Assembly (NCBI GenBank): GCA_964513845.1
Contig: CAZENT010000001.1
Location: 42,450 to 106,449 of the forward strand
Length of the DNA stretch: 64,000 nt
Source of the DNA: an uncultured Pseudomonadales bacterium
GTDB lineage: Bacteria > Patescibacteriota > Microgenomatia > UBA1400 > MFAQ01
Reading direction: 5' to 3'
Shown here one piece after another: positions 4,969 to 63,976 of the stretch. The position numbers were made by a program, and so were the translations under genes. Position 1 is the first letter of the stretch; each line of letters opens with the position of its first letter. The notes under the pieces are model-generated. The model saw nothing but the letters and a program-made list of their open reading frames with translations. It was not told where the DNA came from and searched no databases.

Positions 4969-5274
4969 ATGAACGAACTGTATCCAGTAGCAAAATTAGG
5001 AGATGAAGTGCTTGTGATAAACAAAGATGACATACCACTCATCGGAAAAGAGAACGCGGAAGACGTTAAATGTGTTAGTGTTGATTTAAAACATAAAAGA
5101 ATTGACCCTTTGGCGGCATTGGAAAATCATCTAAAATTTAATCCTTGGGAAGAAACAAGCGAGGAAGAAAGAAGCGCTATTCTTCAGTCTCTGGCAACGA
5201 TATTCCCTAATCAGGATATCTTAGAAAAAATTATTAAGCCCCTCGTCGGAAGCTTAGTTGATTCAAAAAAGTAA
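4969..5274 (+). CDS. Small (~101 aa) conserved partner protein, paralog of 2065..2370
   Basis: ORF-track 4954..5274 starts at TTG. The likely true ATG is at 4969 (MNELYPVAKLGDEVLVINK...), 4 nt after the stop of the 450-aa gene. Confidence 0.6.
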   Translation: MNELYPVAKLGDEVLVINKDDIPLIGKENAEDVKCVSVDLKHKRIDPLAALENHLKFNPWEETSEEERSAILQSLATIFPNQDILEKIIKPLVGSLVDSKK

Positions 5275-5339
5275 TTTCTTTTATTGCTTAAGTCAACAAT
5301 CTATCCACAGAACATATACAACCCAACTGGAAGAATATT

Positions 5340-5816
5340 CTAAAATAGACCTTTTTTCTTGAGTACTTGGATATCTTCTTGAAGATTGCTGAGTCTTTTT
5401 TCAATATCTTTTAAGGCATTGACGACATCGTCCTCTTCTGCGTCGTCCTCGACATAATCATCAGAAATGCCTTTGACGTTTAACTCAAGACTGTCCACGT
5501 CTTCTTGGATGTCACCAATATCCTCACCCAAGTCCTCAACGTCTTCTTGGATATTATCAATGTCTTTTTCTACTCCAGCAAGACTCTTTGTGGTGCGATT
5601 GACGGTCATCTGAATAAAGATGGAGAGATAAATGGCTTCAAGTGATACGGCGGTAGTAAGGATTAGAAGGACTTTATCGAGAGCCATCCCAAAAATTATC
5701 AAGATAAAAATACCCATAAATAGAGCTGTGTGAACCAAGATTGATTGTGGGGTACCAATCCAAAAAGTCAGTTTCTGCGACGCACGATCGAGGTTTGTAA
5801 TCTTTTTTTTGGGCAT
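5340..5816 (-). CDS. Small membrane protein with two TM helices and an acidic C-terminal coiled coil (DUF1003-like)
   Basis: ORF 5340..5864, with internal ATG at 5816 (MPKKKITNLD...). It has a hydrophobic hairpin followed by a D/E-rich repeat region. Confidence 0.5.
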   Translation of the reverse strand: MPKKKITNLDRASQKLTFWIGTPQSILVHTALFMGIFILIIFGMALDKVLLILTTAVSLEAIYLSIFIQMTVNRTTKSLAGVEKDIDNIQEDVEDLGEDIGDIQEDVDSLELNVKGISDDYVEDDAEEDDVVNALKDIEKRLSNLQEDIQVLKKKGLF

Positions 5817-5886
5817 CGTGTTATTTTCCCACAAATTGATGATAAAATACTGCCCATATCGCACACTAAAAAGAATTGGAGGAAGA

Positions 5887-6285
5887 ATGAGACCTGTATT
5901 GCAAGCTATTTTGATACCAACACGTGATTTTCAATTGAAAACTGATATTATGACTGGCTATAAAGATATCTTAATCTGGGAAGGTCATCGAGATTATCAT
6001 GTCGGAACAGTATTATTTTGTGATTGGGAAGAACCGTGGGTGGTAAGGGCATATATTTATGAAGTTCAACTCAAGATTCTGTCTCAAGTTACCCAAGAGG
6101 AATTGGAGCTGAATGATATTAACTCTATTGAAGAGCTGCTTAAGAAAATGCAAGAGCGCTACGGAGACATTACCATGGATTCACCTGTAACAGTTATTCG
6201 ATGGAAAAATGTTTGTGGTGCTTTGACCAGGAATGAAGAAATATATCATTATTCCAAGGTACACAAGACCAAACTCAATTTTTAG
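5887..6285 (+). CDS. Hypothetical protein (132 aa)
   Basis: ATG at 5887 is preceded by a GGAGG Shine-Dalgarno at 5878-5882. An intrinsic terminator follows immediately. Confidence 0.5.
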   Translation: MRPVLQAILIPTRDFQLKTDIMTGYKDILIWEGHRDYHVGTVLFCDWEEPWVVRAYIYEVQLKILSQVTQEELELNDINSIEELLKKMQERYGDITMDSPVTVIRWKNVCGALTRNEEIYHYSKVHKTKLNF

Positions 6286-6294
6286 ATTGAATTT

Positions 6295-6323
6295 AGCCAA
6301 CGAGAAATCGTTGGCTTTTTTAT
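6295..6323. terminator. Bidirectional rho-independent terminator between convergent genes
   Basis: Stem agccaacga / tcgttggct with loop gaaa, followed by TTTTTTATTT. Confidence 0.65.
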
Positions 6324-6854
6324 TTAAAAGATGTCTTCGGGAGGGAGGAATTCTTCACCATTGGCAGCTTGAGGTTTGAACTCGGTTTTGAGCCAGAGAA
6401 CATAGTCGCAACCAGTGGCTTTCTTTTCTTCTCTATCCCAGCCAGAAGTCGAACATTTTTTCATTTTTTTACCGGCCGCGGTGGTGTAGAGAACTAGAGG
6501 TTCGCCACATTTGGGACATTTTTCGTCAAGCTTTTCGGTGGTTCCGTTGATCCATTCAACGTAGTCGCAACCTGTGGCCTTTTTGGCTTCTTTATCCCAA
6601 CCACCGGCACTACATTTCTTCATTTTTTTACCAAAACGTGTCACCTGAAGAACTAAAGGTTCGCCACATTTGGGACATTTTTCATCAAGAGTTTGTGGCT
6701 CAACCTCTAACCATTTGACATAGTCACAGCCATCGGTTTTGTGAGTTTCGGTGTTCCAGACACCCGTTGAACAGCGTCTAAGCTTTCGGCCGGTTGGGGT
6801 TTCGGTAATTTCTGATAGTGGTGCGCCACATTTGGGACATTTTTCTTCTTCCAT
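6324..6854 (-). CDS. Stand-alone protein of three tandem C4 zinc-ribbon repeats resembling topoisomerase-I C-terminal zinc ribbons
   Basis: Three ~57-aa repeats, each CPKCG(A/E)PL...GKKMKKCS..GW.....GCDYV.W. Confidence 0.65.
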   Translation of the reverse strand: MEEEKCPKCGAPLSEITETPTGRKLRRCSTGVWNTETHKTDGCDYVKWLEVEPQTLDEKCPKCGEPLVLQVTRFGKKMKKCSAGGWDKEAKKATGCDYVEWINGTTEKLDEKCPKCGEPLVLYTTAAGKKMKKCSTSGWDREEKKATGCDYVLWLKTEFKPQAANGEEFLPPEDIF

Positions 6855-6896
6855 GCTTATTAGATTAACACATCTTGGACAAGAAGACGAGATGAA

Positions 6897-7214
6897 TTAG
6901 GAAAGGTCTTTGAGAATTTGCTTTACAATTTTGTTGGCGGCTGTTCGGATATCCTCTTCGATGTCTGGACCGACATTCTTTTTGAGGTAAGCAATAAGCT
7001 CCGGATCGTAAGGGCGTTCGTGAACTTGGGATAGAAAAGTACCGTGATTCTGAGGATTAAGCCTTTCCAAGATATGTGCCACAATCCCCTGGTATAAAAT
7101 ATCGTCTATCAATTGAAGAGCTTTTCCTTTTTGATTTTCAGGTTCTGCCTTTTGATTTATCAACTCAACAATCTGGGTTTTGATGATTAAATGGTCGAAA
7201 AAAAGTGGTGCCAT
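6897..7214 (-). CDS. Hypothetical protein (105 aa)
   Basis: ORF in an operon-like position between the RlpA-like gene and the zinc-ribbon gene. No recognisable motif. Confidence 0.4.
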   Translation of the reverse strand: MAPLFFDHLIIKTQIVELINQKAEPENQKGKALQLIDDILYQGIVAHILERLNPQNHGTFLSQVHERPYDPELIAYLKKNVGPDIEEDIRTAANKIVKQILKDLS

Positions 7215-13094: not shown

Positions 13095-14558
13095 GTGTAT
13101 AGAAGGTTTTTATTACCAGACGAGGTTGCATTGCTCCCTAGTGAGCTGAAGCAAGTGATGAGCCTGTATATTGCTCGCGGTTTTGAGATCTATTTGGTGG
13201 GAGGAGGTGTACGAAATATCCTGATGGAGAAAGTCCCGGAGAACTGTGATTTAACGACAAATGCAACACCGGAAGAAAGTTTAGAAATTTTGAAAGAGCT
13301 TGATCCTTTTTATAACAATGATTTTGGAACTGTTTCTTATGAAATTGAAATAGATGGGAAGAAAGAACTATACGAAATCACAACCTATCGTTCGGAAAAA
13401 GAATACTCAGATTATCGCCGTCCCGACAATGTAAGCTGGGGAAAAACTTTGGAAGAAGATGTTACGCGTAGAGACTTCACCGTGGGCGCAATGGTAATCG
13501 GCCAAAAAGATGGAAAATATGAAATTATTGATCTGGTTGGCGGACTAGAAGACTTTGAAAAGGGTTTGATTAGAGCTGTCGGTAACCCCGAAAAACGTTT
13601 TGGAGAAGATGCTCTGAGAATGATGAGAGCCATAAGAATTGCAGCCAAACTTGGTTTTTCGATCGAAGAAGAAACTTTGAAAGCAATTTCAGTCAAGGCA
13701 CCATTGCTTGCCAATATCAGTAAAGAAAGAGTGCGCGATGAGCTAATGAAAATTATTGGGTCTGATTATCCAGCAGACGGAGTATCTCTATTGATATCGA
13801 CTGGTTTGATGGAACAAATAATTCCAGAAGTTTTGGAAGGCAGAGGTGTAATGCAGGGAGGACACCACACTCTGACTGTATTAGATCACATGTTGGAGTG
13901 TTTACGAAATAGTTCTTCACCCGATCCTGTTGTGCGTTTTGCCACTTTTATTCATGATGTGGGTAAACCAAGAAGTCAGAGATATAAGTGCCGAAAATGC
14001 GGAAAAATGTTCAGAGATCTGGCTGAAGAAATGACCACATGCGCCGATTGCGGATTTAATCAGCCGACCAGAGGAATGATTACTTTTTACGGACATGAAG
14101 TTATTGGAGCAAGACTAGCTAAAGAAATATGCGAAAGACTTCGGTTTACAAATAAACAGACTGAAAAAGTTGTGACCCTGGTGCGAATGCACATGTTTGC
14201 TTATCAGCCAGAAATGACAGATGCTGCTATTAGAAGAATCATAAGAAAAGTAGGCAAGGAAAATATCGCCGATATGGTTCTCTTGCGAATTGCCGATCGA
14301 AAAGGAAGCGGAAGTAACACGACAAGTTGGAGATTTATGGAGCTGCAAAAAAGAATTGGCGAACAATTGTTTGAACCAATGGAAATTAATGACATGGCAG
14401 TTGATGGACGAGATGTGATGGAGGTTTTAAATATTCAACCCGGACCTATCGTAGGAAAGGTTTTGAAAGAGTTGTTTGACGAAGTACTGGAGGATACGAG
14501 CAAAAATAACAAAGAATATCTACTTTCACGAATTAAAGAGGTTGAAAAATCCATATAG
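13095..14558 (+). CDS. cca: CCA-adding tRNA nucleotidyltransferase with HD domain and an inserted zinc ribbon
   Basis: GGGVRN...DCDLTTNATPEE is a polymerase-beta head motif. HDVGKP...FYGHE is the HD domain, interrupted by CRKCGKMFRDLAEEMTTCADCG. The true start may be an internal ATG near 13161. Confidence 0.8.
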   Translation: MYRRFLLPDEVALLPSELKQVMSLYIARGFEIYLVGGGVRNILMEKVPENCDLTTNATPEESLEILKELDPFYNNDFGTVSYEIEIDGKKELYEITTYRSEKEYSDYRRPDNVSWGKTLEEDVTRRDFTVGAMVIGQKDGKYEIIDLVGGLEDFEKGLIRAVGNPEKRFGEDALRMMRAIRIAAKLGFSIEEETLKAISVKAPLLANISKERVRDELMKIIGSDYPADGVSLLISTGLMEQIIPEVLEGRGVMQGGHHTLTVLDHMLECLRNSSSPDPVVRFATFIHDVGKPRSQRYKCRKCGKMFRDLAEEMTTCADCGFNQPTRGMITFYGHEVIGARLAKEICERLRFTNKQTEKVVTLVRMHMFAYQPEMTDAAIRRIIRKVGKENIADMVLLRIADRKGSGSNTTSWRFMELQKRIGEQLFEPMEINDMAVDGRDVMEVLNIQPGPIVGKVLKELFDEVLEDTSKNNKEYLLSRIKEVEKSI

Positions 14559-14583
14559 ATTCCGGGTCAGGCCCGGAATGACA
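14554..14583 (+). repeat. Short palindromic repeat element, family A, copy 1 (TATAGATTCCGGGTCAGGCCCGGAATGACA)
   Basis: The same ~30-bp hairpin element recurs at 22371, 22950, 49456 and 57045. Its TAG supplies the stop codon of cca. Confidence 0.8.
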
Positions 14584-21995: not shown

Positions 21996-22991
21996 TTATT
22001 GGTATATTTTTTTCAATTGACTGATGAGGTTTGCTCTATCGGTACTTTTATCATACCAAACTATACCTGATTGTTTTTTAAACCAGACAGTTTGTCTTCG
22101 GGCGTAATCGACTTCAGAACGAGTCCAGGTTTCCACCAGCTCCTCATTGGAAACTTGACCTTCCAAGAAAGCAATTATTTGGGACACCCCCAGGCTAGTG
22201 TAAATGGGAAGGTTTCTGTTGGGATATTTGGTTAATAAATTTTTTACTTCGTCGATGGCACCATCGGCGATTCTATCCAAAACTCTTTTGTGGATTTGAT
22301 TTTTTATACTCTCTTTGTTGGGCATTATGCCAATCCAGTGAAATTGAGATTCTATTAGTGGGTTAATTTGAATAGATTCCCGATCAGGTCGGGAATGACA
22401 AGATTTTGTTATCGATGATGAGTTATTTAATGAGATTTCAATGGCGCGAATTAGCCGGCGAGGATTCATAAAATCCGAGTGATTAAGTGCTGCGAGTTTT
22501 TCTGGATTTTCTTTTTGAAGATAATCTTGAAGCTCTTTGGTGGTGAGCTTCTCTAGTTCTTTTCGCAATTCTTCGTTTGGTGGTACTAAAACATCCGAAA
22601 GATTTTGAGTAATGGCTTTTAAATACAAGCCTGTTCCCCCGACAATTATCAAGGGTGTTTTTGTGGCAATCGAGTCGTTGATTACTTTTTGAGAGTAACG
22701 ACAAAAATCTGCAAGATTTGCTCTTTCATCTGATCGAAAAATATCATGCCCAAATATTTTTATATTTTCGGGAAGGTTGAGCGGAATATCTTTCCCGGTG
22801 ATGATATCCAAATCTTGGTAAACTTGCCGTGAGTCAACCGATAAAATATTTGCTTTGGGCAGCTCTTTAGCTAAGTGAAGAGCAAGGCTAGTTTTGCCCG
22901 ATGCGGTTGGACCACAGATGACGACGATGTGATGATTGGAGTTAATTTGTATAGATTCCGGGTCAAGCCCGGAATGACATAGATATTTCAT
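21996..22991 (-). CDS. miaA: tRNA dimethylallyltransferase carrying two in-frame repeat-element insertions
   Basis: P-loop ICGPTASGKTSLAL and LSVDSRQVYQDLDIITGK match MiaA. Two ~13-aa insertions (CHSGLDPESIQIN at the N-terminus, CHSRPDRESIQIN mid-protein) coincide exactly with family A elements at 22950 and 22371. Confidence 0.8.
   Translation of the reverse strand: MKYLCHSGLDPESIQINSNHHIVVICGPTASGKTSLALHLAKELPKANILSVDSRQVYQDLDIITGKDIPLNLPENIKIFGHDIFRSDERANLADFCRYSQKVINDSIATKTPLIIVGGTGLYLKAITQNLSDVLVPPNEELRKELEKLTTKELQDYLQKENPEKLAALNHSDFMNPRRLIRAIEISLNNSSSITKSCHSRPDRESIQINPLIESQFHWIGIMPNKESIKNQIHKRVLDRIADGAIDEVKNLLTKYPNRNLPIYTSLGVSQIIAFLEGQVSNEELVETWTRSEVDYARRQTVWFKKQSGIVWYDKSTDRANLISQLKKIYQ
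22371..22400 (+). repeat. Short palindromic repeat element, family A, copy 2 (inside miaA, in frame)
   Basis: AATAGATTCCCGATCAGGTCGGGAATGACA. Confidence 0.8.
22950..22979 (+). repeat. Short palindromic repeat element, family A, copy 3 (inside the miaA 5' end, in frame)
   Basis: TATAGATTCCGGGTCAAGCCCGGAATGACA. Confidence 0.8.
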
Positions 22992-51954: not shown

Positions 51955-52572
51955 TTATTTAGATTTAGCCAATAAAACTGATTTCAATCTATCGACTAAG
52001 TGAGTGTAGGCACTAGGAGTGATGACAAGTTTGGGGTTGGTGACTACTTTGTAGACATTTAAGCGATTGGCAGAGAGAAGAACCACGTTATCGAGATTCC
52101 CAATGGCTTTAAGAGTTTTGGGGTCTTCCTGAAAATGCACCAGGCCGAGCTTTTCTGAACCAAGAACCTTGAGAGCAGACTTGGTGGATGAGTCTTTGAC
52201 AGCTGAAGTGTCGAGAATTGAGAGACGTTCTTCTTTATTGTAAAGAGATAGTGCACCGAGAAGGGCTTTTATCTTCATTTTTTTGTTTAGAGCTTTGGAA
52301 GTAAGTTTTAGTCCGAGTGGGCCAAACACGACACCTCCACCGACAAAGATAGGAGATGACTTAGCACCGTGACGGGCACCACCAGTACCTTTTTGTTTGT
52401 AGATTTTCTTTTTGGATGCAACGATTTCTCCACGAGTTTTAACTTTGGAAGTACCTACATGTGAGTTTTCTTGATAGATGTAGATTGCCTGAGCAAGAAG
52501 TGCGGGAGAAACTTCCTTGTTGAAAACCGAAAGATCCGGTTGGCTTTGTGTTTGAACTTTTTTAGTAGCCAT
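51955..52572 (-). CDS. rplD: 50S ribosomal protein L4
   Basis: L4 signature (KQKGTGGARHGAKSSPIFVGGGVVFGP). Confidence 0.9.
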   Translation of the reverse strand: MATKKVQTQSQPDLSVFNKEVSPALLAQAIYIYQENSHVGTSKVKTRGEIVASKKKIYKQKGTGGARHGAKSSPIFVGGGVVFGPLGLKLTSKALNKKMKIKALLGALSLYNKEERLSILDTSAVKDSSTKSALKVLGSEKLGLVHFQEDPKTLKAIGNLDNVVLLSANRLNVYKVVTNPKLVITPSAYTHLVDRLKSVLLAKSK

Positions 52573-52577
52573 ATGTT

Positions 52578-53192
52578 TTATTTATTTGAACTTCCGGTAA
52601 TAGTAATCTTCGTCACAGCACCGCGGCAACCAGGAATGGCGCCAGTGATTTGAAGAATGCCTGTTTCGGCATCAAAAGAATGGATTTTCAAGTTTTCGAC
52701 AGTGACATTGACGTCACCCATGTGACCAGCCATGTGTTTACCCTTGACGACTCTACCTGGAGTAGTACCTCGGCCAATGGAACCTGGAGCACGGCCTCTG
52801 TCTGATTGACCGTGAGTACGTGGACCACCATGCATACCCCAACGTTTCATAACACCAGATGTTCCCTTACCTTTTGAGGAAGCGGTAACATTGACGATGG
52901 AACCGGGAGTTAAGATTTCGGCTAGATTAATTTCAGATGTAATTTCGTCGACTTCTCTAATTAGTTTTGGGGTGGCACCAATTCCAACTTTTTTGAGGAA
53001 ACCGGCCATAGGTTTGTTGGCTATCTTTTTGTTGCCAATACCCAGAACGGTTGCTTCATATCCGTCTTTTTCGATTGTTTTTGAAGAGATAACCATGTGA
53101 GGATCAACCGTGAGGACGGTCAAGGGGATCCGCTTACCTTCGACGAAGGTCTGAGTCATACTCTGTTTGGTTGCGTATACTTGTTTGTTCAT
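52578..53192 (-). CDS. rplC: 50S ribosomal protein L3
   Basis: L3 signature (GKGTSGVMKRWGMHGGPRTHGQSDRGRAPGSIG). Confidence 0.9.
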   Translation of the reverse strand: MNKQVYATKQSMTQTFVEGKRIPLTVLTVDPHMVISSKTIEKDGYEATVLGIGNKKIANKPMAGFLKKVGIGATPKLIREVDEITSEINLAEILTPGSIVNVTASSKGKGTSGVMKRWGMHGGPRTHGQSDRGRAPGSIGRGTTPGRVVKGKHMAGHMGDVNVTVENLKIHSFDAETGILQITGAIPGCRGAVTKITITGSSNK

Positions 53193-53300
53193 TTTTTATT
53201 AATATATTGTTTTCACCAATTAAATCCGTCCCCGAGTTTCGGGGAAACCGAAAAACGGAAGGGGAAGTTTATTAGTTAGTTAAAGATAGCGACATTAAAG

Positions 53301-53618
53301 TTACATCTTGATTTCAATGCCAACACCGGCGGGAAGATCAAGGTGCTGAAGTGAATCAATAGTCTTGTTAGTTGGGTTCACGATATCGATGAGCCTCTTG
53401 TGGGTGAGGATGGCGAACTGTTCGCGAGCATCTTTATCGGTGTGAGGAGAAGAGGTGACAACAATAACTTTCTTCTTGGTGGGCAATGGAACCGGACCAA
53501 CCACCTGAGCGCCAGAGACTAAGGCGGCCTGAATTATCTTTTTGGCGGCCTCATCGATAACACGATGATCGAAGGATTTTAGTTTGACGCGAATACGTGG
53601 TTGGTCTGTCATGTTCAA
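53301..53618 (-). CDS. rpsJ: 30S ribosomal protein S10
   Basis: [23 protein letters not shown] is the S10 signature. Confidence 0.9.
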
Positions 53619-53653
53619 GAAGTTTAAATGTACTGATTAATTGGTATCGTTAA

Positions 53654-54829
53654 TTAAGCGATAACCTTGGTAATAACTCCAGCGCCGACAGTTAGTCCAC
53701 CTTCACGAATTGCGAAGTTTTGTCCATCTGACATGGCGATTGGTTGAATGAGTTCGACGGACATCTTGGCATTGTCACCAGGCATGATCATCTCGACACC
53801 TTCTGGGAGTTTGACTTCACCAGTAACATCGGTGGTGCGGATAAAGAATTGAGGTTTGTAGCCAGTGAACATAGGAGTGTGGCGACCACCTTCATCTTTG
53901 CCTAGGATATAAGCCTCGGCTTCGAACTTGGTGTGAGGAGTGATGGAACCAGGTTTGGCCAAAACTTGACCTCTTTGGACATCTTCTTTTTCAATACCAC
54001 GGAGAAGTAGACCGACGTTGTCGCCTGCTTGACCCTGTTCGAGCTGTTGGTGGAACATTTCGACTCCAGTAACAACTGATTTGGTAGTGTCTTTGATACC
54101 GACGATCTCGACTTCATCACCGATCTTGACGATACCTGTTCCGATACGACCGGTAACAACGGTACCACGACCCTTGATGGAGAAAACGTCTTCAACGGGC
54201 ATAAGGAAAGGCTTGTCGAGCTCACGAACTGGATCTGGAATCCATTCATCAATGGTATCCATGAGTTTCATGATGCCGGCTTGAGCTTCTTTGTCGCCTT
54301 CGAGAGCTTTAAGAGCAGAAACGCGAACGATTGGGGTGTCTTCTTCGAAGTGATTTTTGACCAAGAGTTCTTTGATTTCCATCTCGACTAACTCGAGAAG
54401 TTCTGGATCTGTAACAGCATCACATTTGTTTAGAGCAACGACCAAACGAGGAACGTTGACCTGATGAGCCAAGAGTAAGTGCTCTTTGGTTTGAGGCATA
54501 GGACCGTCTGTAGCAGCGACGACCAAGATAGCACCGTCCATCTGAGCGGCACCAGTGATCATGTTTTTGATGTAGTCACGGTGACCAGGACAGTCGATGT
54601 GGGCATAGTGACGTTTGGATGTTTCGTAAGGGACGTGGGAAATGTTGATAGTAACTCCACGCTCTCTCTCTTCAGGAGATTTATCAATCTGATCAAAAGG
54701 AAGAGCTTCAGCTAGTCCTTGAGCAGCTAAGGTTGTGGTAATAGCGGCAGTTAATGTGGTCTTGCCGTGGTCAACGTGACCGATGGTTCCGATATTAACG
54801 TGGGGTTTGGTTCTTTGGTATGTAGCCAT
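53654..54829 (-). CDS. tuf: Elongation factor Tu
   Basis: [15 protein letters not shown] and NKCD G-motifs. 391 aa. Confidence 0.95.
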
Positions 54830-54898
54830 GTTTGTTAATTTTTTTTAATTATTTATAATATTTGCGTTTTAAGCCTATTTATTTTAGCAGATTTTACC

Positions 54899-57022
54899 TT
54901 ATTGTGCCGGATTTTTCAATAACTTTGCGGCAATACTGTTTGGAAGTTCCTGATAATGACTTGGTTCCATGTAGTAACTTGCACGTCCAGCAGTGAGTGA
55001 ACGGATAGCTGTAGCATAAGCGGAGAGCTCGGAAAGTGGAACTGTAGCTGTAATAACACGAGCATTTCCACGCTGAGCAGTGCCACCAATTTGTGCGCGT
55101 CTGGCAGAAAGATCGCCGATGATGTCACCCATGTTACCTTCTGGGGTGGTGACTTCGACTTTCATAATTGGCTCGAGAATAACAGCTCCGGCTTGCTTGA
55201 CAGCGTCCTGAAGAGCCATTGATCCGGCAATTTTGAAGGACATTTCGGAAGAGTCAACTTCGTGAAAACTACCATCAACGACGGCAACATCAAGGTCGAC
55301 CATGGGGAAACCGGCTATAAGACCGTTGTCGAGAGCTTCACGAACACCTTTTTCGATAGGATTAATGAATTCGCGTGGGATGGTACCTCCAACAATTTTG
55401 TTGGTGAAAGTAAAGCCTTCACCGCGAGGTTTAGGTGTAATAACGAGAATGGCGTGTCCGTATTGACCACGTCCACCTGATTGACGAATATATTTTCCTT
55501 CTCCGCGGGCTTCTTTGGTGATGGTTTCGCGATAGGCAACTTGAGGAGCACCTGTGGTTGCATCGACTTTGAACTCACGACGAAGACGGTCAACGAGAAT
55601 TTCCAAGTGAAGCTCTCCCATACCAGCGATAACGGTTTGGCCGGTTTCGTGGTTGGTTTTGATTTTAAAGGTAGGATCTTCTTCAGCGAGACGGCCTAGA
55701 GCGATATCAAGCTTTTCTTGATCAGCTTTGGTTTTTGGTTCAATGGCTAGAGAGATAACCGGATCTGGGAAGTCGATTGATTCAAGAACGATGGGTTTGT
55801 TTTCATCACAAAGGGTATCTCCTGTTTTGGTAGCTTTGAGTCCAACAACACCGACAATTTCGCCCGCTTTGGCTTCCTGAATTTCTTCTCTGGTATTGGC
55901 ATGCATAAGCATCAAACGACCAAGACGTTCACGCTCAGACTTACTGGCATTAAAAACGTAGGAACCGGCTTGAATTTTGCCAGAGTAAAGACGAACGTAA
56001 GTGACTTTTCCAACATGAGGATCGGCTTGAATTTTGAAGGCTAGTCCCACAAAAGCTTCGTTGATATCGGGTTTTCTAGTTTCAACTTCGCCAGTTTTGA
56101 GATTGGTTCCGGCAGTGTCGGCAATGTCTAAGGGAGAAGGAAGGAAGTCGACGACAGCATCGAGAAGAGGCTGAACACCTTTGTTGCGAAGACAAGAGCC
56201 AGGGAAAACAGGAACGATTTCATTAGCAATGGTGGCTTTTCTGAGAGCGGTTTTGAGATCAGACATGGATGGTTCTTCACCGTTCAAATATTTTTCCATG
56301 AGGGCCTCGTCTGTTTCGACAATTGATTCGATCAGTTTGCCTCTTTCGCTTTCGCAATCAGCTTCCATATCGGCAGGAAAACCGGCGGTAATATCGTATT
56401 TGGCACCGGTTTCATCACCTTGCCAAATAATGGTTTTTTTCTCGAGGAGCATGGCAATTCCCTTGAAAGTATTTTCGACTCCAATGGGAAGAGCTAGAAT
56501 AGCGGTTTTAGCACCGAGTTTTTCATGAACATCTTTGATTGTTCCCATAAAGTCTGCACCAAGAACGTCCATTTTATTTACCAAGGCAATACGAGGAACT
56601 TTGTATTTGTCAGCTTGGCGCCAGACAGTTTCGGTTTGGGACTGAACGCCGGAACCGGCATCAAGAACAATAATACCGCCGTCGAGAACGCGAAGAGAGC
56701 GTTCGACTTCGGCCGTAAAGTCTACGTGACCGGGAGTATCGATAACATTAAAACGACATTCGTCTTTGATGTTGGCATCTTCGAGAACTGGGGTCCAAAA
56801 AGTGGTGGTAGCCGCGGAAACAATAGTTATACCGCGTTCGCGCTCTTGATCCATCCAGTCCATCTGGGTGTCGCCTTCATCAATATCACCGATTTTATAA
56901 GTTTTACCGGTGTAAAAAAGGATACGTTCGGTGGTGGTGGTTTTACCGGCATCAATATGAGCGATAATGCCAATGTTTCTAACACGTTCTAGTGGTATTT
57001 GTTTTGAGACGCCTGCGGCCAT
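54899..57022 (-). CDS. fusA: Elongation factor G
   Basis: AHIDAGKTTTTE, DTPGHVDF and NKMD motifs. 707 aa. Confidence 0.95.
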   Translation of the reverse strand: MAAGVSKQIPLERVRNIGIIAHIDAGKTTTTERILFYTGKTYKIGDIDEGDTQMDWMDQERERGITIVSAATTTFWTPVLEDANIKDECRFNVIDTPGHVDFTAEVERSLRVLDGGIIVLDAGSGVQSQTETVWRQADKYKVPRIALVNKMDVLGADFMGTIKDVHEKLGAKTAILALPIGVENTFKGIAMLLEKKTIIWQGDETGAKYDITAGFPADMEADCESERGKLIESIVETDEALMEKYLNGEEPSMSDLKTALRKATIANEIVPVFPGSCLRNKGVQPLLDAVVDFLPSPLDIADTAGTNLKTGEVETRKPDINEAFVGLAFKIQADPHVGKVTYVRLYSGKIQAGSYVFNASKSERERLGRLMLMHANTREEIQEAKAGEIVGVVGLKATKTGDTLCDENKPIVLESIDFPDPVISLAIEPKTKADQEKLDIALGRLAEEDPTFKIKTNHETGQTVIAGMGELHLEILVDRLRREFKVDATTGAPQVAYRETITKEARGEGKYIRQSGGRGQYGHAILVITPKPRGEGFTFTNKIVGGTIPREFINPIEKGVREALDNGLIAGFPMVDLDVAVVDGSFHEVDSSEMSFKIAGSMALQDAVKQAGAVILEPIMKVEVTTPEGNMGDIIGDLSARRAQIGGTAQRGNARVITATVPLSELSAYATAIRSLTAGRASYYMEPSHYQELPNSIAAKLLKNPAQ

Positions 57023-57044
57023 ACTGGTTGTATTTAGTTATTTA

Positions 57045-57073
57045 TATAGTTTCCCGCTTTCGCGGGAATGACA
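57045..57073 (+). repeat. Short palindromic repeat element, family A, copy 5 (helicase-fusA intergenic)
   Basis: TATAGTTTCCCGCTTTCGCGGGAATGACA. Confidence 0.8.
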
Positions 57074-57146
57074 TCATTTAATTGACGAAATAAATTAGTC
57101 CACAAAGGACCATAATTTCACGAGCTTAATTTTACCACAACTCTTA

Positions 57147-59210
57147 TTATGGGTGGGTGTGGTGTCGGTGATTGCGACGGTCGTTTTTGTTAAGATTTTT
57201 TCGATGTTCTTTGTGATCTTTTGGTTTCGCTGCAAAAAGCTCTGGAGCATATTCTTTGAGCCACTCGATTTTAGCCTCAAAACAGTTACAGGCGTAGGCA
57301 TTTCCTTGAGGATTGACAAAAATTTCATTGGCAATAATGTAAGAACCTTTTGGGGGAATGTCTGAGGCTAGTACGGAGCCAGGATGAATCGAGATATCCC
57401 CTTTGGTGCCATCTACTTTGTGAAAATTATTTCTGCCTGTGTTTTTCAACAAATTGCCAATTAATCCGGAGGTGATAGCCTTGCCAATAGCGGTTTTATT
57501 GATCTTAGGTATTGTTTCCGGATCGATAAAGATATCGTGACTGTCAAGAACATCTAAGAGATCGAGGCGAACATTTTTGGCCTCTTCGAGGGCTTTTTCG
57601 TTGAGAAAATTATTTTTGGCCCAATCTGGGTTGTAGCCGCTGGCCGCATACGCTTTCCAAACATTTAAATAGACGAAAAAATCTGATTCTGCACCCTGAA
57701 CAAACGAAGCATGTGCGTTTTCAGCAACATACTCGAACTCTCTTTCTTGCGGTTTTACAAAGATGTTTTTGCCATCAAGGAAAGAGGCAATGATAGTAAT
57801 TTCATTTAAGCAGTCAATTTCCGGCCTCATGGCCTCAAGAAGCATTCGACCTAGGCGAGGCTCAATCCCCAACTCAACAAGCCACTCCCCAATTTCGGTA
57901 ATGTTTCCTTCGTCATCAATGGCGCCAAGAGTGGTAAGGGTTTTGATGGCTTGAGCGATGGCCTTTTCGCCGGGATGATCTAAGAAATCGAAATCCAATA
58001 TATTCTGAATGCCGAATTTCTTCATGGTCAACACAACTTGGGACAGGTCGGAACGCTGGATTTCCGGAGTTTGGAACTGAGGACGTCTTCTGAGACTGCT
58101 TTCGGTGAAAAGTCGGTAACAGTACCCTGGGGCGGTTCGCCCTGATCTTCCCTTGCGCTGATCGATACCGCTGATGGCGTGTTCGGTAAGGACAAGCTGT
58201 TCGATACCACTTCTGGGATCAAATTGGGTTTGTTTGATGTATCCAGAGTCTATGACGTGAATAATACCGTCGATCGTAATTGAGGTTTCAGCGATATTGG
58301 TAGCAACGATAATTTTTCTTTTTTTGGAGGGCAAGAAAATCTTGTCTTGTTCGTCTGGGGCCATTTCGGCGTGTAATGGGAAAATATCAACTGTTTGAGG
58401 ATTAATTCGGGCTTCGATTTTGGCAATGGTGTTTGATATTTCCTTTTTTCCAGGCATAAAAATGAGAATGTCACCATCAAGATCATTGTCGATAATGGCT
58501 TTGACTTTTTCGGCGGCACCCTGAGTAAAATCGTAGTAAACAGGCGTTTCCTTTTCATAAAAAACCTCTACGGGAAACATTTTCCCCGGTATTTCGACCA
58601 AGTTTTCTTTGTCTCCCTCGCCAATGTACTCGGCAAATCGATTCCTCTCGATGGTGGCTGAGGTAACAACAATGCGAATTGTTTCAATCCCGGCTTGAAT
58701 ACGAGCCTGATTGGCACTCTTTAGAAGTCCCAGACAAAGGTCGATGTTTAAACTTCGCTCGTGGGCTTCATCGATCATAACAATGGAGTACTCGGACAAA
58801 AGAGGGTCAAACTGGATTTTTCTCAGTAAAATGCCGTCCGTCATAAAAGTAATGTCTGTCTTTTTGGAGGTGATGTCTTCGAAACGAATGTGATAACCAA
58901 CCCTTTCCCCCACCTCACACTGCATCATGTCTGAGACACGACTAGTCATGCTTTTGGTGACAATTCTTCTTGGTTGAGTTACAGCGATGCCACCCTTGAG
59001 ATGAAGCTCATTTCTTAGCTCAAGCAAGAGAGGTGGCAAGCAGGATGTTTTTCCAGATCCGGTTTCGCCAACCAGAACAAAGTATGGGTGAAGCCTAATT
59101 TCATCGCGCAAAAACTCTCTCAAATATGCCACAGGAATCTGATCCAGATTTTCTAGAGCATACTCAGAAGAACGATTGTACCGACTGCTTTCAATTGATT
59201 TTGAGGCCAT
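57147..59210 (-). CDS. DEAH-box ATP-dependent RNA helicase (HrpA/HrpB-like) inserted in the str operon
   Basis: Motifs I GETGSGKT, II DEAH, III SAT, V TNIAETSITI and VI QRKGRSGR are present. 687 aa. Confidence 0.8.
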   Translation of the reverse strand: MASKSIESSRYNRSSEYALENLDQIPVAYLREFLRDEIRLHPYFVLVGETGSGKTSCLPPLLLELRNELHLKGGIAVTQPRRIVTKSMTSRVSDMMQCEVGERVGYHIRFEDITSKKTDITFMTDGILLRKIQFDPLLSEYSIVMIDEAHERSLNIDLCLGLLKSANQARIQAGIETIRIVVTSATIERNRFAEYIGEGDKENLVEIPGKMFPVEVFYEKETPVYYDFTQGAAEKVKAIIDNDLDGDILIFMPGKKEISNTIAKIEARINPQTVDIFPLHAEMAPDEQDKIFLPSKKRKIIVATNIAETSITIDGIIHVIDSGYIKQTQFDPRSGIEQLVLTEHAISGIDQRKGRSGRTAPGYCYRLFTESSLRRRPQFQTPEIQRSDLSQVVLTMKKFGIQNILDFDFLDHPGEKAIAQAIKTLTTLGAIDDEGNITEIGEWLVELGIEPRLGRMLLEAMRPEIDCLNEITIIASFLDGKNIFVKPQEREFEYVAENAHASFVQGAESDFFVYLNVWKAYAASGYNPDWAKNNFLNEKALEEAKNVRLDLLDVLDSHDIFIDPETIPKINKTAIGKAITSGLIGNLLKNTGRNNFHKVDGTKGDISIHPGSVLASDIPPKGSYIIANEIFVNPQGNAYACNCFEAKIEWLKEYAPELFAAKPKDHKEHRKNLNKNDRRNHRHHTHP

Positions 59211-59270
59211 TGATAGAGCTAATAATGATGTGCTAGGTTAACACAAGTAAGATAAAGCCACAAGCAACAA

Positions 59271-59296
59271 AAAGACCCGCCAAGGCGAGTCTTTTT
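59271..59296. terminator. Terminator-like hairpin with flanking A- and T-tracts between rpsG and the helicase gene
   Basis: aaa-gacccgc-caag-gcgagtc-ttttt, with one mismatch in the stem. Confidence 0.4.
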
Positions 59297-59343
59297 GAAA
59301 TATTCTATATAGATTATTCCCAATCAAACTGGAAACGACAGGA

Positions 59344-59820
59344 CTACCATCTAAAGTGACTGAAAGCCTTGTTTGCCTCAGCCATTTTGTGAGTATCAAG
59401 CTTTTTCTTGATAGCGGCACCAGCGTTTTCATGAGCCTCAAGAATCTCGGCGGCAATCTTGTCAGCTAGAGTACGAGTTGGGTTGTTGGATCTAGCCTTG
59501 GCGGCGTTTAGTACCCAACGGATAGCGAGAGAGTCACGACGTTCGGGGCGAATGGGAGTTGGAACCTGGTAAGAAGCTCCACCAACACGACGGGAACGAA
59601 CCTCGATGGTTGGTTTGACGTTTTCCATAGCTTCAACAAGATACTCAAGACCATCTCTACCTGTCTGCTCGGCGATGAGGTCGATGGCAGCGTAGATTTG
59701 TTTGGCGGCGATGGATTTTTTACCTTCGATCATGCATCCATTGATGATTTTGGAAACCAACTCACTTCCATAGATTGGATCGAGCTGGATTTTTTTGGCG
59801 TGTGTTTTCTTGGATCTCAT
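59344..59820 (-). CDS. rpsG: 30S ribosomal protein S7
   Basis: S7 signature (PIYGSELVSKIINGCMIEGKKSIAAKQIY...). Confidence 0.9.
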   Translation of the reverse strand: MRSKKTHAKKIQLDPIYGSELVSKIINGCMIEGKKSIAAKQIYAAIDLIAEQTGRDGLEYLVEAMENVKPTIEVRSRRVGGASYQVPTPIRPERRDSLAIRWVLNAAKARSNNPTRTLADKIAAEILEAHENAGAAIKKKLDTHKMAEANKAFSHFRW

Positions 59821-59825
59821 ATATT

Positions 59826-60245
59826 TTATTTAGCTGGTGAAGGTCGTTTGGTGCCGTACTTACTACGACTAGTGCGACGTTTTTCAATACCACCAGTATC
59901 TAATTTGCCACGAACAATGTGATATTTGACACCGGGTAAGTCACGAACACGACCACCGCGGATCATAACGATACTGTGTTCAGCCAAGTTGTGCCCTTCA
60001 CCCATGATGTAGGCAGTAACTTCTTGTTTGTTTGATAGTCTGACACGAGCAATCTTACGAAGAGCGGAGTTTGGTTTCTTAGGAGTCATGGTTTTGACCT
60101 GAAGACAAACACCGGCTTTTTGTGGAGACTGGGTCTCGACCATGTGTCGTTTGATAGAGTTGAAACTCTTACGGAGAGCCGTAGTTTTCACTTTGGTGGC
60201 TGCACTGTGGCGGCCACGTTTGATTAGTTGATTAGTTGTAGGCAT
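59826..60245 (-). CDS. rpsL: 30S ribosomal protein S12
   Basis: [12 protein letters not shown]...[10 protein letters not shown] is the S12 signature. Confidence 0.95.
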
Positions 60246-60265
60246 AATTTCAGATGTGTATTTTA

Positions 60266-63200
60266 TCAGATATTCTCTATTTTTGCTCTGAGCTTGCTTG
60301 TAGGTACCAAGCGACCAATGATGACATTTTCTTTCATGCCGATTAGGTGATCGATCTTGCCTTGAACCGCAGCGTCTGTTAGAACGGAAGTGGTGTCTTG
60401 GAAGGAAGCGGCGGATAGCCAGGAATCGGTGTGTAGAGCAGCTCTAATAGCGCCAAGAATTAAGTTGGTAGCTGTGGCTGGTTCTCCACCTTGAGCAATA
60501 ACAGCTTCGTTGGCCATTTCATAAGCTCCACGGCTGATTACATCGCCAGCAACAAGGGCGGTGTCACCAACAGCGTCGATGCGGACATAGTCACACATCT
60601 TGCGGAGGATAACTTCGAAATGCTTGTCATGAATACTGATACCCTGGGACTCGTAGATTGACTGAATTTCGCCGATAAGGTAGTTTTGTGTAGCTCTGAG
60701 ACCTTTGATCTTGAGAAGTTGTTTGATATCTACTCCTCCGGAAGCTAGTTGAGTGCCAACCGAGATCAAATCTCCATCTGCGACCTTGAGAGACATAGCT
60801 AAAGGAATCAAGTACTCTTTGCGATCTTCTTTGGCCTTACTGCCAGGAGTGACGGTAACAAGATTACCATTTTCGGTTTCAACTACTTTGACCTTGCCAG
60901 AAATTTCGGAAATTGGAGCAACAAGTTTGGGCATACGAACTTCCAAAAGCTCTGTAACACGAGGAAGGCCTTGGGTAACGTCAACACCAGCAGCACCTCC
61001 AGAGTGTTTGGTACGCATAGTTAGCTGTGTTCCAGGCTCACCAATGGACTGGGCGGCGATGATGCCAACCGGGTCACCAACGATAGCCAGCTTGTTGGTT
61101 GCGGTGTTGTGCCCATAACATTTGGCACAAAGACCAAATCGGAGCTTACAGGTGATCGGGGATCTGACCTCGACCTCTTTAACTCCAACAGCCTCAATGA
61201 CAGCAGCAAGTTCTTCTGTAATGAGTTCACCAGCATCGACAATTACTTTCTTGGTATCAGGATTGACGATCTTGTGAACGGCGAAACGGTGAACAATACG
61301 TTTGGCGAAGATCTTGCCACCTCTTTCTTCAGCAACGATGGTGATAAATTCATCAGTACCACAGTCTTCAGCACGAACAACAGCGTCGTGACTGACGTCA
61401 ACTAGACGACGAGTTAGGTAACCAGCGTCTGCGGTACGAAGAGCAGTGTCGGTAAGACCTTTTCGGGAACCTCTAATGGAAGTAACATACTCGAAGATAG
61501 AAAGACCTTCACGGAAGTTTCCTTTGATAGGAAGCTCAATGAGATTACCCAGAGGATCAGCGATAAGTCCACGCATGGCGGAGAGCTGTTCGATGGAGTT
61601 CTTGGTAACACGTCCTGAAGCTGAGTCGATAACCAAACGAATTGGGTTGGTCTTGGAGAAAGTGGTCCAGGTCTTTTCGGCGAGGTCGGCAGCTGTTTCT
61701 CTCCACATATTGATGGTGAGTTTGCTTCTTTCACTATTGGTAATTAAACCTAGCCTGTAGTTTTCTTCAATTTCTTCAGCTTTCTTGTTTCCAATGGCAA
61801 TGAGCTCAGCTTTTTGTGGATAGATTTCGTTATCGGAGATGGCGAAACTAAAACTACTGATGGTCGCATACTCAAAACCGATACTCTTGACTGCGTCGAT
61901 CAATTTAACGACACGTTTGGTGTCGACTGTTTTGATAGCGCGAGTAAAGAAAGCAGAGATTTCTTTTCCAGTAAGACTCTTGTTTTGGAATTCCCATTCT
62001 TTAGGAAGAATCTGGTTGAAGATAATACGACCAACCGTGGTCGTGGTCATTTCCATGGTTTCAGGATTGAGACGAACATCAATTGGCTGGCGAACTTCAA
62101 TAACCTTGTTTTGGTAGGCTGTGATAGCCTCAGCGGAACTACCAAAAGGATATTTGTAAGGAGTAAGAGTTTCGTCGATACTGGTTAAGTAGTAAACACC
62201 GACGGCCATCTCTTTACGAGAAGGAATGTTGACACTTTGTCCGGAAGAGGGCTTAAGAAGGTTGAACTGAGGCAACATGAACTTCTTGGCCTCACGAATA
62301 GCTTTTTTGGTCAAAGGAACGTGAACAGCCATCTGGTCACCATCGAAGTCAGCGTTAAAACCTTCACAGACAACAGGGTGAAGACGAATAGCAGAACCAT
62401 CAACTAAAACCGGTAAGAAGGCAAGAATAGAAAGCTTGTGAAGTGTGGGAGCACGGTTTAGAAGGATAGGATGCTTTTTGGTAATTCTTTCCAAGATATC
62501 GAAAACTTCAGGCTGGCGTTTTTCAATTAAAGCTTTGGCCGCTTTAACGTTTGGAGCTAGATCCTGTTTGATGATCTCGTGAAGTACGAATGGTTTGAAC
62601 ATTTCAAGAGCCATGTCTTTGGGAAGACCACACTGGTTAAGTTTGAGCTCTGGGCCAACGATAATAACGGAACGGCCGGAGTAGTCAACGCGTTTTCCAA
62701 GAAGGTTCTGGCGGAAACGACCCTGTTTTCCACGAAGCATGTCGGAAAGAGATTTGAGGGTTTTGCCGGTTCTGGATCTTCTGGTTGATCTAGCTTGAGA
62801 AGAGTCGATTAAAGAATCAACCGCTTCCTGAAGCATGCGTTTTTCGTTTCTTAAAATAATCTCAGGAGCACCGAGATCGATGAGATGCTTTAAACGATTG
62901 TTACGGTTGATGACGCGACGATAAAGATCGTTTAAATCAGATGCAGCGAAACGGCCACCAGAAAGCTGAACCATAGGACGAAGATCTGGAGGGATAACAG
63001 GAAGAACTTCGAGAACCATCCACTCGGGTTTGACCTTGGAATCAAGAAGTCCACGAACGACTTGAAGTCGTTTGGTGGCTCTAAGACGTTTGGCCTCGGA
63101 GTTTGAAAGAGACTCTTCTTTGAGCTTAACAACCAGTTCTTCAAGATTAACTTTCTTTAAGGCGTCAAGAATGGCTTCAGAACCCATACCGGCAGTCAAC

Positions 63201-63976
63201 CAATCTACAAGATTGTATTCGGCCAGTTTGGCGTATTCAGAGTCTGACAAAAGAGAGTTGACTTGAATTCTTTCAATAATAACAGCAAGTTTAGAGTAGA
63301 TTTCTTCGGTAAAAGCAAGCTCGACAACCATCTGCTCTCTAAGACAGGCAATTTTTTGTTTGGCTTCAGTCTTAAGATCGTCGGACTTAAGCTCGACTTC
63401 GTCTTTGGCCTTGGATTTTTTCTTAACTTCAGCAAGTTCTTTCTGACCGGTTTTTTTGACCTCTTCGATTTGAGTATCAAAATTGACACGCACCTCTTCA
63501 AGTTTGGCCTCTTTTTGAAGATTAATATTTTTTAGGGCTTCTTCTCTCTTTTCTTCATCAATAGACATGATGAGGAATTTACTGAAATAGATAACGGAAG
63601 TTAAAGCTTTGGGAGAGATATCGAGAAGCAAGGAAAGCTTTGAGGGCGCACCTTTGAAGAACCAAACATGAGCAACAGGAGCAGCAAGATTGATGTGGCC
63701 CATACGCTCACGACGAACGCGACTGAGGGTAACTTCAACACCACACTTGTCACAGATAATACCCTTGAATCGGACACGTTTGTACTTACCACAGTAACAC
63801 TCCCAGTCTTTGACAGGTCCAAAAATTCTTTCACAAAAAAGGCCATCCTTTTCTGGTTTTTGAGTACGATAGTTGATGGTTTCTGGCTTTGTTACCAAGC
63901 CGTGGGACCATTTTTTTACGTCGTCTGGACTGGCGAGCCTTATTTGTAAACCGGAGAAATCGACAATGTTGTTCAT
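60266..63976 (-). CDS. rpoC: DNA-directed RNA polymerase subunit beta' (complete, 1236 aa)
   Basis: Zinc-binding CxxC...CxxC N-terminus, the NADFDGD catalytic motif, and trigger-loop/bridge-helix regions. Confidence 0.95.

Follow-up and report, generated by a model that had tools for sequence, protein, structure and literature searches.

The rpsL, rpsG, fusA and tufA genes make up the classical str operon of the E. coli type, which is a single transcription unit. Two groups of DEAH helicases are the closest described systems for the additional gene that we found in this cluster. One is represented by E. coli HrpA, a helicase of the DEAH/RHA type by which collided ribosomes are split (PMC11419001, PMC8325345) and whose residues 784-1300 (DUF3418-like) bind the disome interface and are needed for splitting (PMC11419001). 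The other comprises the spliceosomal and ribosome-biogenesis enzymes DHX8/Prp22, DHX15/Prp43, Prp16 and Prp2, which gave our protein its best sequence matches among solved structures and its best fold matches, and are of a similar, core-only size.

The window, i.e. the whole stretch of 64,000 nucleotides that was analysed, carries the genes of the classical operon in the same order and on the same strand, and continues into the S10 cluster; however, it differs in having a 2-kb helicase gene between rpsG and fusA, where relatives harbor further cassettes. On the minus strand, on which all the features described below lie, the ORFs were ordered as rpoC (60266-63976), rpsL (59826-60245), rpsG (59344-59820; ribosomal protein S7, 158 aa), which is the final gene of the rpsL-rpsG unit, a spacer of 133 nt, a gene for a 687-aa DEAH/RHA RNA helicase (57147-59210), a spacer of 124 nt, fusA (54899-57022; EF-G, 707 aa), tuf (53654-54829) and rpsJ (53301-53618). 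The contiguity of rpsL-rpsG-fusA-tuf is interrupted here by a helicase-bearing interval of 2321 nt (57023-59343), exactly the gap from the rpsG stop to the fusA start. The position of a DEAH helicase between rpsG and fusA, reported in the initial annotation, was borne out by the ORF order and by the Pfam domains and motifs of the protein.

The helicase gene has a G+C content of 0.41-0.48, similar to that of its flanks, and encodes a complete RecA1-RecA2-winged-helix-ratchet-OB core followed by a disordered basic C-terminal tail (residues 663-687). Its Pfam matches were DEAD, Helicase_C, HA2_N, HA2_C and OB_NTP_bind, the last three each exceeding the Pfam cut-offs. All motifs I-VI were intact in the translation (I, GETGSGKT; Ia, TQPRR; Ib, TDG; II, DEAH; III, SAT; IV, LIFMPG; V, TNIAETSIT; VI, QRKGRSGR), the majority of their residues being invariant over 24 homologues and the remainder varying conservatively. 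These motifs, together with the winged-helix, ratchet (HA2) and OB-fold domains after the RecA pair, place the protein among the DEAH/RHA (DExH) helicases of superfamily 2. In public data the genes involved already bear the annotation HrpA-like or ATP-dependent RNA helicase. No relevant publication emerged from literature searches on HrpA or DEAH helicases of Microgenomates, Patescibacteria or the candidate phyla radiation, or on str operons that contain a helicase.

The best PDB matches were DHX8 and DHX15 (397-405 bits over residues 16-664), as compared with 332 bits for the HrpA chains, a difference that may reflect the divergent OB region of HrpA and not a closer ancestry with the eukaryotic enzymes. 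An AlphaFold model of the protein (pLDDT 81.9) matched the RNA-bound cores of DHX8, DHX15 and Prp22 with TM values of 0.8-0.9; about 650 columns were aligned, at 33-35% identity. In contrast to the eukaryotic DEAH helicases, this enzyme belongs to a bacterial host and so has no spliceosome to act upon; neither a G-patch activator nor an N-terminal targeting extension was identified for it. With HrpA it shares the same cassette of RecA1, RecA2, winged-helix, ratchet and OB domains, but E. coli HrpA is 1300 aa long, and the curated NCBIfam HrpA models TIGR01967/NF008348 scored below both of their cut-offs (458 bits versus 722.75, and 398.7 versus 1400). HrpB was also considered and rejected, as both curated models remained below their cut-offs (350 bits versus 546, and 328 versus 1053) and the alignment ended at residue 483, with no HrpB-type C-terminal domain. 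The protein is a minimal, core-only DEAH/RHA enzyme that is uncharacterised. Its homology to cores of known structure (Prp43, Prp22/DHX8 and HrpA) implies that it would thread single-stranded RNA between the RecA domains and the ratchet/OB domains, and would translocate in the 3' to 5' direction on NTP hydrolysis. We infer that its cellular target most likely belongs to ribosome or RNA metabolism, because in two distinct gene orders the gene adjoins genes for ribosomal proteins.

The placement of the helicase gene was shared by relatives. It lay directly after rpsG in seven other related Microgenomates (Woesebacteria-like) genomes, six of them with fusA directly downstream; the order rpoC-rpsL-rpsG-helicase-fusA-tuf-rpsJ was present in the L081/L082, L083/L084, L087, L091 and L092 loci and in the P0014 contig, and in L095 the rpsG-helicase pair was followed by other genes. 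Where measured, the rpoC of these relatives was 89-95% identical to that of the window, and the orthologues of S7 (annotated PF00177) and those of EF-G showed protein identities of 85-95% and 89-96%, respectively. Overall, in the related loci the flanking proteins were 85-100% identical to those of the window and the helicase only 60-75%. L087 has the flanks nearest to those of the window, yet its helicase was just 60-63% identical to every other, which could indicate an in-place allele replacement instead of simple vertical descent. Between rpsG and the helicase gene the relatives carry variable cassettes of small ORFs, apparently with promoters and terminators of their own and including a DUF559 endonuclease-like gene, as well as whole genes. 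The window contained no counterpart of these small ORFs, nor of a protein of about 190 aa found immediately beside the helicase in candidate-phyla-radiation loci that are more distantly related.

In a neighbour-joining tree, which was not bootstrapped, all eight members sampled from two subclades of the helicase were located after rpsG, as compared with none of the six sampled from other branches, in a small synteny sample of 14 genomes. Six more distant homologues lie elsewhere, one of them directly after rplS (the Collierbacteria helicase gene begins 2 nt after rplS), and the non-syntenic homologues were mostly without translation-related neighbours. Among the matches listed, the nearest homologues all came from Microgenomates-type sources (51-78% identity), other homologues of the candidate phyla radiation reached about 45%, and those of spirochaetes and others were at or below 37%. 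An alignment-based genome scan settled on the universal DEAH motifs; its listed matches were mostly spirochaete, proteobacterial and other HrpA genes, and neither S7 nor EF-G was found near the 80 loci that it listed; a metagenome scan with the single helicase protein returned one locus. The survey of rpsG-fusA intervals proposed in the initial annotation upheld the placement in seven relatives but not in homologues from other branches, and a vertical pattern is supported by nearest homologues of the same lineage and by the G+C content, with L087 as an outlier in helicase identity. The initial annotation had reasoned that a position found throughout the phylum with no flanking repeats would make the helicase a stable lineage feature; the outcome comes close to this, since seven relatives share the placement without the repeat, but within one Woesebacteria-like clade and not across the whole phylum. 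We propose, with a probability of about 80%, that in one clade of Woesebacteria-like Microgenomates, which belong to the candidate phyla radiation, the helicase has been passed on vertically in its place between rpsG and fusA, that it is not a recent insertion in this genome, and that the str cluster is split there into separate transcription units.

Several predicted signals bear on this split. A hairpin with the form of a canonical intrinsic terminator (59268-59297; an A-tract, an 8-bp G+C stem and a U-tract) lies 47 nt after the rpsG stop. Read from 59297 to 59268, it forms 13 pairs followed by TTTTTGTTG, it was the top terminator-like site in a 12-kb scan, and its fold had an energy of -17.9 kcal/mol (z = -5.4). 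A G+C-rich stem-loop and a U-tract after a stop codon, the features that define intrinsic terminators, are both present here, confirming the hairpin that the initial annotation had placed 3' of rpsG. It occurs at the same place in L081, L083, L087, L091 and L095, with stems that differ but remain complementary, i.e. in six of seven genomes including the window (five of the six relatives with DNA), and the stems show compensatory changes; it was absent after rpsG in L092. Sites found by a generic terminator/promoter-type scan of the locus were not in excess over shuffles.

Upstream of the helicase gene, TGTGTTAACCT is a putative extended -10 box by its match to the consensus (59235-59245; 24 nt upstream of the ATG). 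CTGTGTTAAYCT is identical in the window, L081, L083, L087 and L091; the corresponding position in L095 reads TATGTTATCCT, and in L092 TGTGGTATTCT occurs further upstream. A second putative extended -10 box, TGGTAAAAT (57129-57137), which would serve fusA-tuf, starts 10 nt after the helicase stop, and TGGTA(A/C/G)AAT was kept in all six aligned helicase-fusA spacers. It is followed by a conserved two-tier hairpin (57087-57119), at the predicted 5' end of the fusA leader, and then by a U-rich tract. The six homologous leaders, each folded separately, all fold alike, with covariation in the inner stem (CUGUCC/GGACAG versus CUGCCC/GGGCAG). A consensus fold of the MAFFT-aligned leaders (RNAalifold) was uninformative, the loops being misaligned. 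When 52500-60600 was searched against Rfam at E <= 1, two matches at chance level were obtained and none for the leader hairpin. This hairpin was weakly terminator-like in the scan, and it may serve as a 5' stabiliser or an attenuator.

The rpsG terminator and the conserved extended -10 boxes before the helicase gene and before fusA suggest that the str cluster of this clade is cut into separate transcription units, at least three, in contrast to the single unit of the classical operon. According to these consensus matches, the rpsL-rpsG unit would end at the conserved terminator; in relatives, though not in the window, a variable cassette of small ORFs would come next; the helicase would be read from its own extended -10 promoter; and fusA-tuf would be read from a further conserved extended -10 promoter with a conserved 5' hairpin leader. 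The idea that the rpsG hairpin uncouples the helicase from rpsL-rpsG, raised as an alternative in the initial annotation, is in this way supported at the sequence level. Since no terminator was found in the stretch from the end of the helicase gene to the fusA promoter, read-through from the helicase gene into fusA is possible.

The fusA leader of the window also contains a palindromic element, TGTCATTCC-CGC-GAAA-GCG-GGAAACTATA (57045-57073), of the family called A in the initial annotation. The initial annotation had reported this copy between the helicase and fusA, and it proved to be one of four in the window. The other three, recognised by their flank pattern, lie between convergent ORF ends (14555-14583), in frame inside the miaA-like ORF (22372-22400) and at the 5' end of the miaA-like ORF (22951-22979). 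The family is defined by its flanks, as a search with the inner stem finds a single copy only; the pattern TGTCATTCC-N(8-18)-GGAAWCTAT had four matches in the window as compared with none expected (0 in 100 shuffles), and the inner stems differ among copies yet remain complementary. With several copies, conserved flanks and a frequency above chance, family A qualifies as a dispersed palindromic repeat family. REP/BIME and the Rickettsia palindromic elements are dispersed repeats of this kind. Like them, the family A copies are short imperfect palindromes, dispersed and mostly at gene boundaries, also with conserved flanks, covarying inner stems and one in-frame coding copy, a resemblance drawn from form, but family A amounts to four copies in 64 kb. 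The element was absent from the helicase-fusA spacers of L081, L083, L087, L091 and L092, and from all 95 loci; in the window genome alone, this small repeat would have landed in the fusA leader.

A recent arrival of the helicase, through horizontal transfer or on a mobile element, with the palindrome and the hairpin marking the insertion boundaries, would agree with the dispersed nature of the four-copy family, with the frequent occurrence of variable genes in the rpsG-fusA interval of relatives and with a helicase that diverges much faster than its flanks. The description of the helicase as inserted and bracketed by a repeat is not supported, however: seven related genomes share the position without the repeat, the element is missing from the homologous spacer of five relatives and the terminator and the palindrome are unrelated sequences. 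Moreover, the G+C content is not anomalous, no integrase, transposase or direct repeats were found at the locus, and the nearest homologues are all of the same lineage. Shared synteny largely refutes this origin, to which we give almost no credence. The contrast between a helicase 60-75% identical and flanks 89-100% identical, with variable cassettes next to it, might alternatively reflect a fast-evolving variable island that has come to lie between rpsG and fusA by chance and that would play a part in conflicts, for example in defence. A defence role was rejected, as the PADLOC models gave no match to the helicase (0 families at E <= 0.001). The catalytic motifs are strictly conserved and the orthologues across the candidate phyla radiation are single genes in unrelated contexts; rpoC, EF-G and EF-Tu belong to the slowest-evolving of all proteins, which makes the difference in rate unexceptional. 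An island of this kind is very improbable.

Regarding function, the helicase could be the equivalent of E. coli HrpA, a splitter of collided ribosomes that pulls on the mRNA and for this reason is found among translation genes. HrpA is its best bacterial family match (the 458-bit alignment joins profile positions 59-693 to residues 18-665), HrpA itself rescues collided ribosomes (PMC11419001), and the gene adjoins rpsG/fusA in the window and rplS in Collierbacteria. Nevertheless, the helicase ends at residue 687, without the entire C-terminal region (HrpA 784-1300), and HrpA truncated to residues 1-783 can neither split ribosomes nor complement the deletion (PMC11419001). Because this region is absent, the ribosome-splitting function is not transferable to the helicase, and with scores below both HrpA cut-offs and higher for DHX8 and DHX15 than for HrpA, we regard the equivalence as quite unlikely. 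Less easily dismissed, but still doubtful, is a genuine membership of the helicase in the str operon: it would be transcribed together with rpsL-rpsG and with fusA-tuf, and its dosage would thereby be coupled to translation-factor expression. Terminators are seldom 100% efficient, and some read-through past the one after rpsG is expected; the genes share a strand with short spacers (133 and 124 nt), the helicase stop and fusA are not separated by a terminator, and L092 does without the rpsG terminator. The strong A-tract/stem/U-tract terminator of the other six genomes, with its compensatory changes, argues against this, as do the conserved extended -10 boxes that precede both the helicase gene and fusA, and relatives tolerate terminated cassettes with their own promoters, and whole genes, between rpsG and the helicase.

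The finding shows that a gene cluster which ranks with the most conserved in bacteria has been broken up in one lineage; the gene arrangement by itself is a stable clade feature. The fusA leader hairpin, conserved but unannotated, could contribute to a control of EF-G and EF-Tu expression that is specific to the lineage. The rRNA genes of the candidate phyla radiation often carry insertions and introns. We tentatively suggest, as a speculative reading, that this minimal helicase of the candidate phyla radiation associates with ribosomes and remodels RNA, as the bacterial counterpart to Prp43/DHX15, acting in rRNA maturation or in the clearing of stalled ribosomes without the collision-sensing tail of HrpA; if so, this function would be reflected in two independent linkages of the gene, to rpsG/fusA in the Woesebacteria-like genomes and, in Collierbacteria, to rplS. 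In summary, our work describes an uncharacterised, core-only DEAH/RHA helicase retained by genome-reduced bacteria of the candidate phyla radiation which, if it acts on ribosomes, would show how a DEAH core can be targeted without the C-terminal sensor of HrpA and would provide a simple bacterial model for Prp43-like enzymes.

Every large ORF between 52 kb and 64 kb lies on the minus strand, in the order rpoC (60266-63976), rpsL (59826-60245), rpsG (59344-59820), the 687-aa helicase (57147-59210), fusA (54899-57022), tuf (53654-54829) and rpsJ (53301-53618), followed by rplC and rplD. This order confirmed the initial annotation, which had placed a DEAH helicase gene between rpsG and fusA, and the rpsG-to-fusA interval, 57023-59343, matched its coordinates exactly. 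The rpsJ-rplC spacer (53193-53300, minus strand) is unusually long at 108 nt, with relatives showing 90-140 nt too; within it, a G+C hairpin, TCCCCGAAACTCGGGGA (53229-53245, minus strand), had no Rfam match.

Homologues of the helicase number in the thousands. The closest ~85 (51-78% identity, 670-810 aa) all came from Microgenomates-type sources (Woesebacteria, Collierbacteria and "Microgenomates group"), the next tier comprised other candidate-phyla-radiation bacteria at ~45% identity, and spirochaetes and other phyla showed 37% or less among the matches listed. We inspected the gene neighbourhoods of 12 homologues, plus one locus obtained via a metagenome scan. The order rpoC-rpsL-rpsG-helicase-fusA-tuf-rpsJ was found in L081/L082 (74% helicase identity to the window), the Woesebacteria assembly L083/L084 (64%), L087 (60%), and L091, L092 and the P0014 contig (68% each); L095 (65%) likewise has the helicase after rpsG, with different genes downstream. 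In the six rpsG-linked genomes with DNA, rpoC was 89-95% identical to that of the window, and, where the gene was present, EF-G and EF-Tu were 89-96% and 95-98% identical. The six other homologues, which belong to different branches of the helicase tree, are encoded away from rpsG; a neighbour-joining tree without bootstrap assigned 8/8 rpsG-linked helicases to two subclades and left 6/6 of the others outside. The initial annotation had regarded the helicase as inserted in this genome, an idea that does not hold given the same placement in seven related genomes; a mobile insertion was rejected on the shared synteny, the tree grouping and a G+C content like that of the flanking genes. Together, these data suggest that the placement is a shared, inherited trait of one Woesebacteria-like clade. 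A position stable throughout the phylum had been expected to lower its novelty; stable it was, but clade-wide and not throughout the phylum. The observation itself was right: the str cluster has a variant form at the level of this clade, and we found no paper describing a helicase within this cluster.

Outside this clade, another ribosomal protein gene is linked to the helicase: in Collierbacteria the ortholog (L085/L086, 5468-8010; 62% identity) begins 2 nt past the end of rplS, which encodes ribosomal protein L19, and lies downstream of dnaE. In L088, L089, L090, L093 and L094 the helicase occupies unrelated contexts. In more distant candidate-phyla-radiation loci the helicase gene begins where the gene of a 187-223-aa protein ends (L089, 4409-4999; L090, 4406-4999; L001, 5334-5897; L002, 5049-5720). 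These four proteins matched no Pfam family, share weak mutual homology (E 1e-4 to 1e-21) and have no homologue in the window; they may represent a conserved partner gene.

Among the syntenic genomes the helicase was 60-75% identical, versus 89-100% for neighbouring proteins, a contrast that is not exceptional because these neighbours are among the slowest-evolving proteins. The flanks of L087 were the closest to those of the window (rpoC, S7, EF-G, EF-Tu and S10 at 95-100%; EF-G 96%, S7 95%), yet its helicase (5001-7079) was the most divergent, with 60-63% identity to every other syntenic helicase, and fell in another subclade of the tree. Strong acceleration or in-place allele replacement are possible explanations.

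The hairpin with A- and T-tracts reported after rpsG was corroborated. It is located 47 nt past the rpsG stop codon (59297-59268, minus strand), where an A-tract leads into an 8-bp G+C stem with a short loop, trailed by TTTTTGTTG. Its folding energy was -17.9 kcal/mol (z = -5.4 versus shuffles), and it was the top terminator-like site of a 12-kb scan, in which the overall count of promoter and terminator sites did not exceed that of shuffles. A terminator lies directly 3' of rpsG in the window, L081, L083, L087, L091 and L095, with stems that vary yet remain complementary (GACTCGCC/GGCGGGTC, GCCTCC/GGAGG, GTCCCC/GGGGAC, GCCCCC/GGGGGC and GCCCCGCC/GGCGGGGC); only L092 lacked it. In the relatives a variable, self-contained cassette comes next, in which a TGGTAGAAT-type box of its own and a Shine-Dalgarno sequence precede a small ORF and another terminator. 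The spacers of L081 (5521-6000) and L091 (3370-3973) encode Cys-containing ORFs of 86-106 aa; those of L083 (5631-6000) and L087 (4632-5000), Pro/Glu-rich ORFs of 49-57 aa with QPE or EPE C-termini; that of L095 (3795-5000), a similar Pro/Glu-type frame ending in PPSEPE and a 188-aa DUF1361-like ORF; and that of the P0014 contig, a DUF559/MTES_1575 endonuclease-like gene. The window's spacer, the shortest at 133 nt, has none of the cassette components, which this genome either lost or never had. The rpsG-fusA interval as a whole behaves as a small hot spot where genes are gained and lost, the helicase being its constant resident. In all spacer versions a CTGTGTTAAYCT box is conserved 12-26 nt upstream of the ATG start codon of the helicase (window, 59235-59245), a putative extended -10 promoter (TGnTAnnnT). 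The same box, TGTGTTAATCT, also occurs at 6862-6872 (minus strand), its end 7 nt upstream of the start codon (ATG) of ORF 6324-6854, which would fit a leaderless transcript.

Downstream of the helicase, an extended -10 box, TGGTAAAAT (57129-57137, minus strand), starts 10 nt past the stop codon and was kept in the six genomes aligned (window, L081, L083, L087, L091 and L092). It precedes a two-tier hairpin (57087-57119, minus strand) that folds alike in all six, its inner stem covarying and its tail rich in U; it had no Rfam match and could act as a 5' stabiliser or attenuator controlling EF-G and EF-Tu expression. 3' of this hairpin, in the window only among the six spacers, lies the palindrome TGTCATTCCCGCGAAAGCGGGAAACTATA (57045-57073, minus strand), a copy of the repeat family A; at this site L083 and L091 carry other hairpins, and L081, L087 and L092 none. 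Searches with its inner stem retrieved no second copy, and a hairpin census defined the family by its flanks: TGTCATTCC, a variable self-complementary core and GGAA(T/A)CTAT. The pattern TGTCATTCC-N(8-18)-GGAAWCTAT gave four matches in the window (14555-14583, 22372-22400, 22951-22979 and 57045-57073; all minus strand, with unlike, still complementary inner stems) against none in 100 shuffles, substantiating the element reported before fusA. Two copies resemble the in-frame insertions of Rickettsia palindromic elements: within the miaA (IPPT) ORF 21996-22991, one lies in frame (22372-22400, encoding CHSRPDRESIQIN) and the other at its 5' end (22951-22979, encoding CHSGLDPESIQIN). The family was absent from all 95 related loci. 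The proposed "bracketing" of the helicase was not upheld: the rpsG terminator and the palindrome are unrelated, and family A occurs in the window's spacer only.

Most simply, rpsL-rpsG, the helicase and fusA-tuf would each be transcribed from a promoter of their own. The conservation of the terminator and of the -10 box favours the earlier suggestion that the hairpin uncouples the helicase from rpsG, which it would insulate. As for the co-transcription with fusA-tuf also put forward, helicase transcripts may continue into fusA; the signals conserved in the sequence argue against obligatory co-transcription.

The protein itself contains the Pfam domains DEAD, Helicase_C, HA2_N, HA2_C and OB_NTP_bind, and the claim of complete canonical motifs stood: eight of eight, DEAH included, with residues mostly invariant across 24 homologues. 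An AlphaFold model made from this alignment (mean pLDDT 81.9) confined disorder to the first 12 residues and the basic tail (663-687), and superposed on the cores of DHX8, DHX15, Prp22, Prp2, Prp16 and Prp43 with TM 0.8-0.9 over ~650 columns. Therefore, domains, motifs and superposition identify an intact, complete DEAH/RHA core with essentially no additions. The RNA-bound structures of its homologues Prp43, Prp22 and HrpA predict that single-stranded RNA binds between the RecA pair and the ratchet/OB domains of the enzyme, which would translocate along it in the 3' to 5' direction. Public annotations call these homologues "ATP-dependent RNA helicase" or "HrpA-like RNA helicase". Functionally, this protein is probably no orthologue of HrpA, because it scored below both curated HrpA cut-offs (458 versus 722.75 bits for one), aligned only to HrpA 59-693 and lacks the C-terminal region 784-1300 of E. 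coli HrpA. That region touches both ribosomes of a disome, and HrpA 1-783 neither splits ribosomes nor complements (PMC11419001). Scores for DHX8 (405 bits) and DHX15 (397) exceeded that for E. coli HrpA (332), a difference that carries no phylogenetic conclusion since the HrpA OB region aligns poorly.

Literature searches gave no paper about DEAH/HrpA-type helicases of Patescibacteria, and this one is an uncharacterised, core-only member of a well-known family. It matched no PADLOC defence model. That one clade links it to rpsG and fusA and another clade to rplS gives a mild hint of a translation-related role; most other contexts offer no such hint. With low confidence, we rate a role in ribosome or RNA metabolism as the likeliest; such a minimal helicase may be a ribosome-associated remodeller in candidate-phyla-radiation bacteria.
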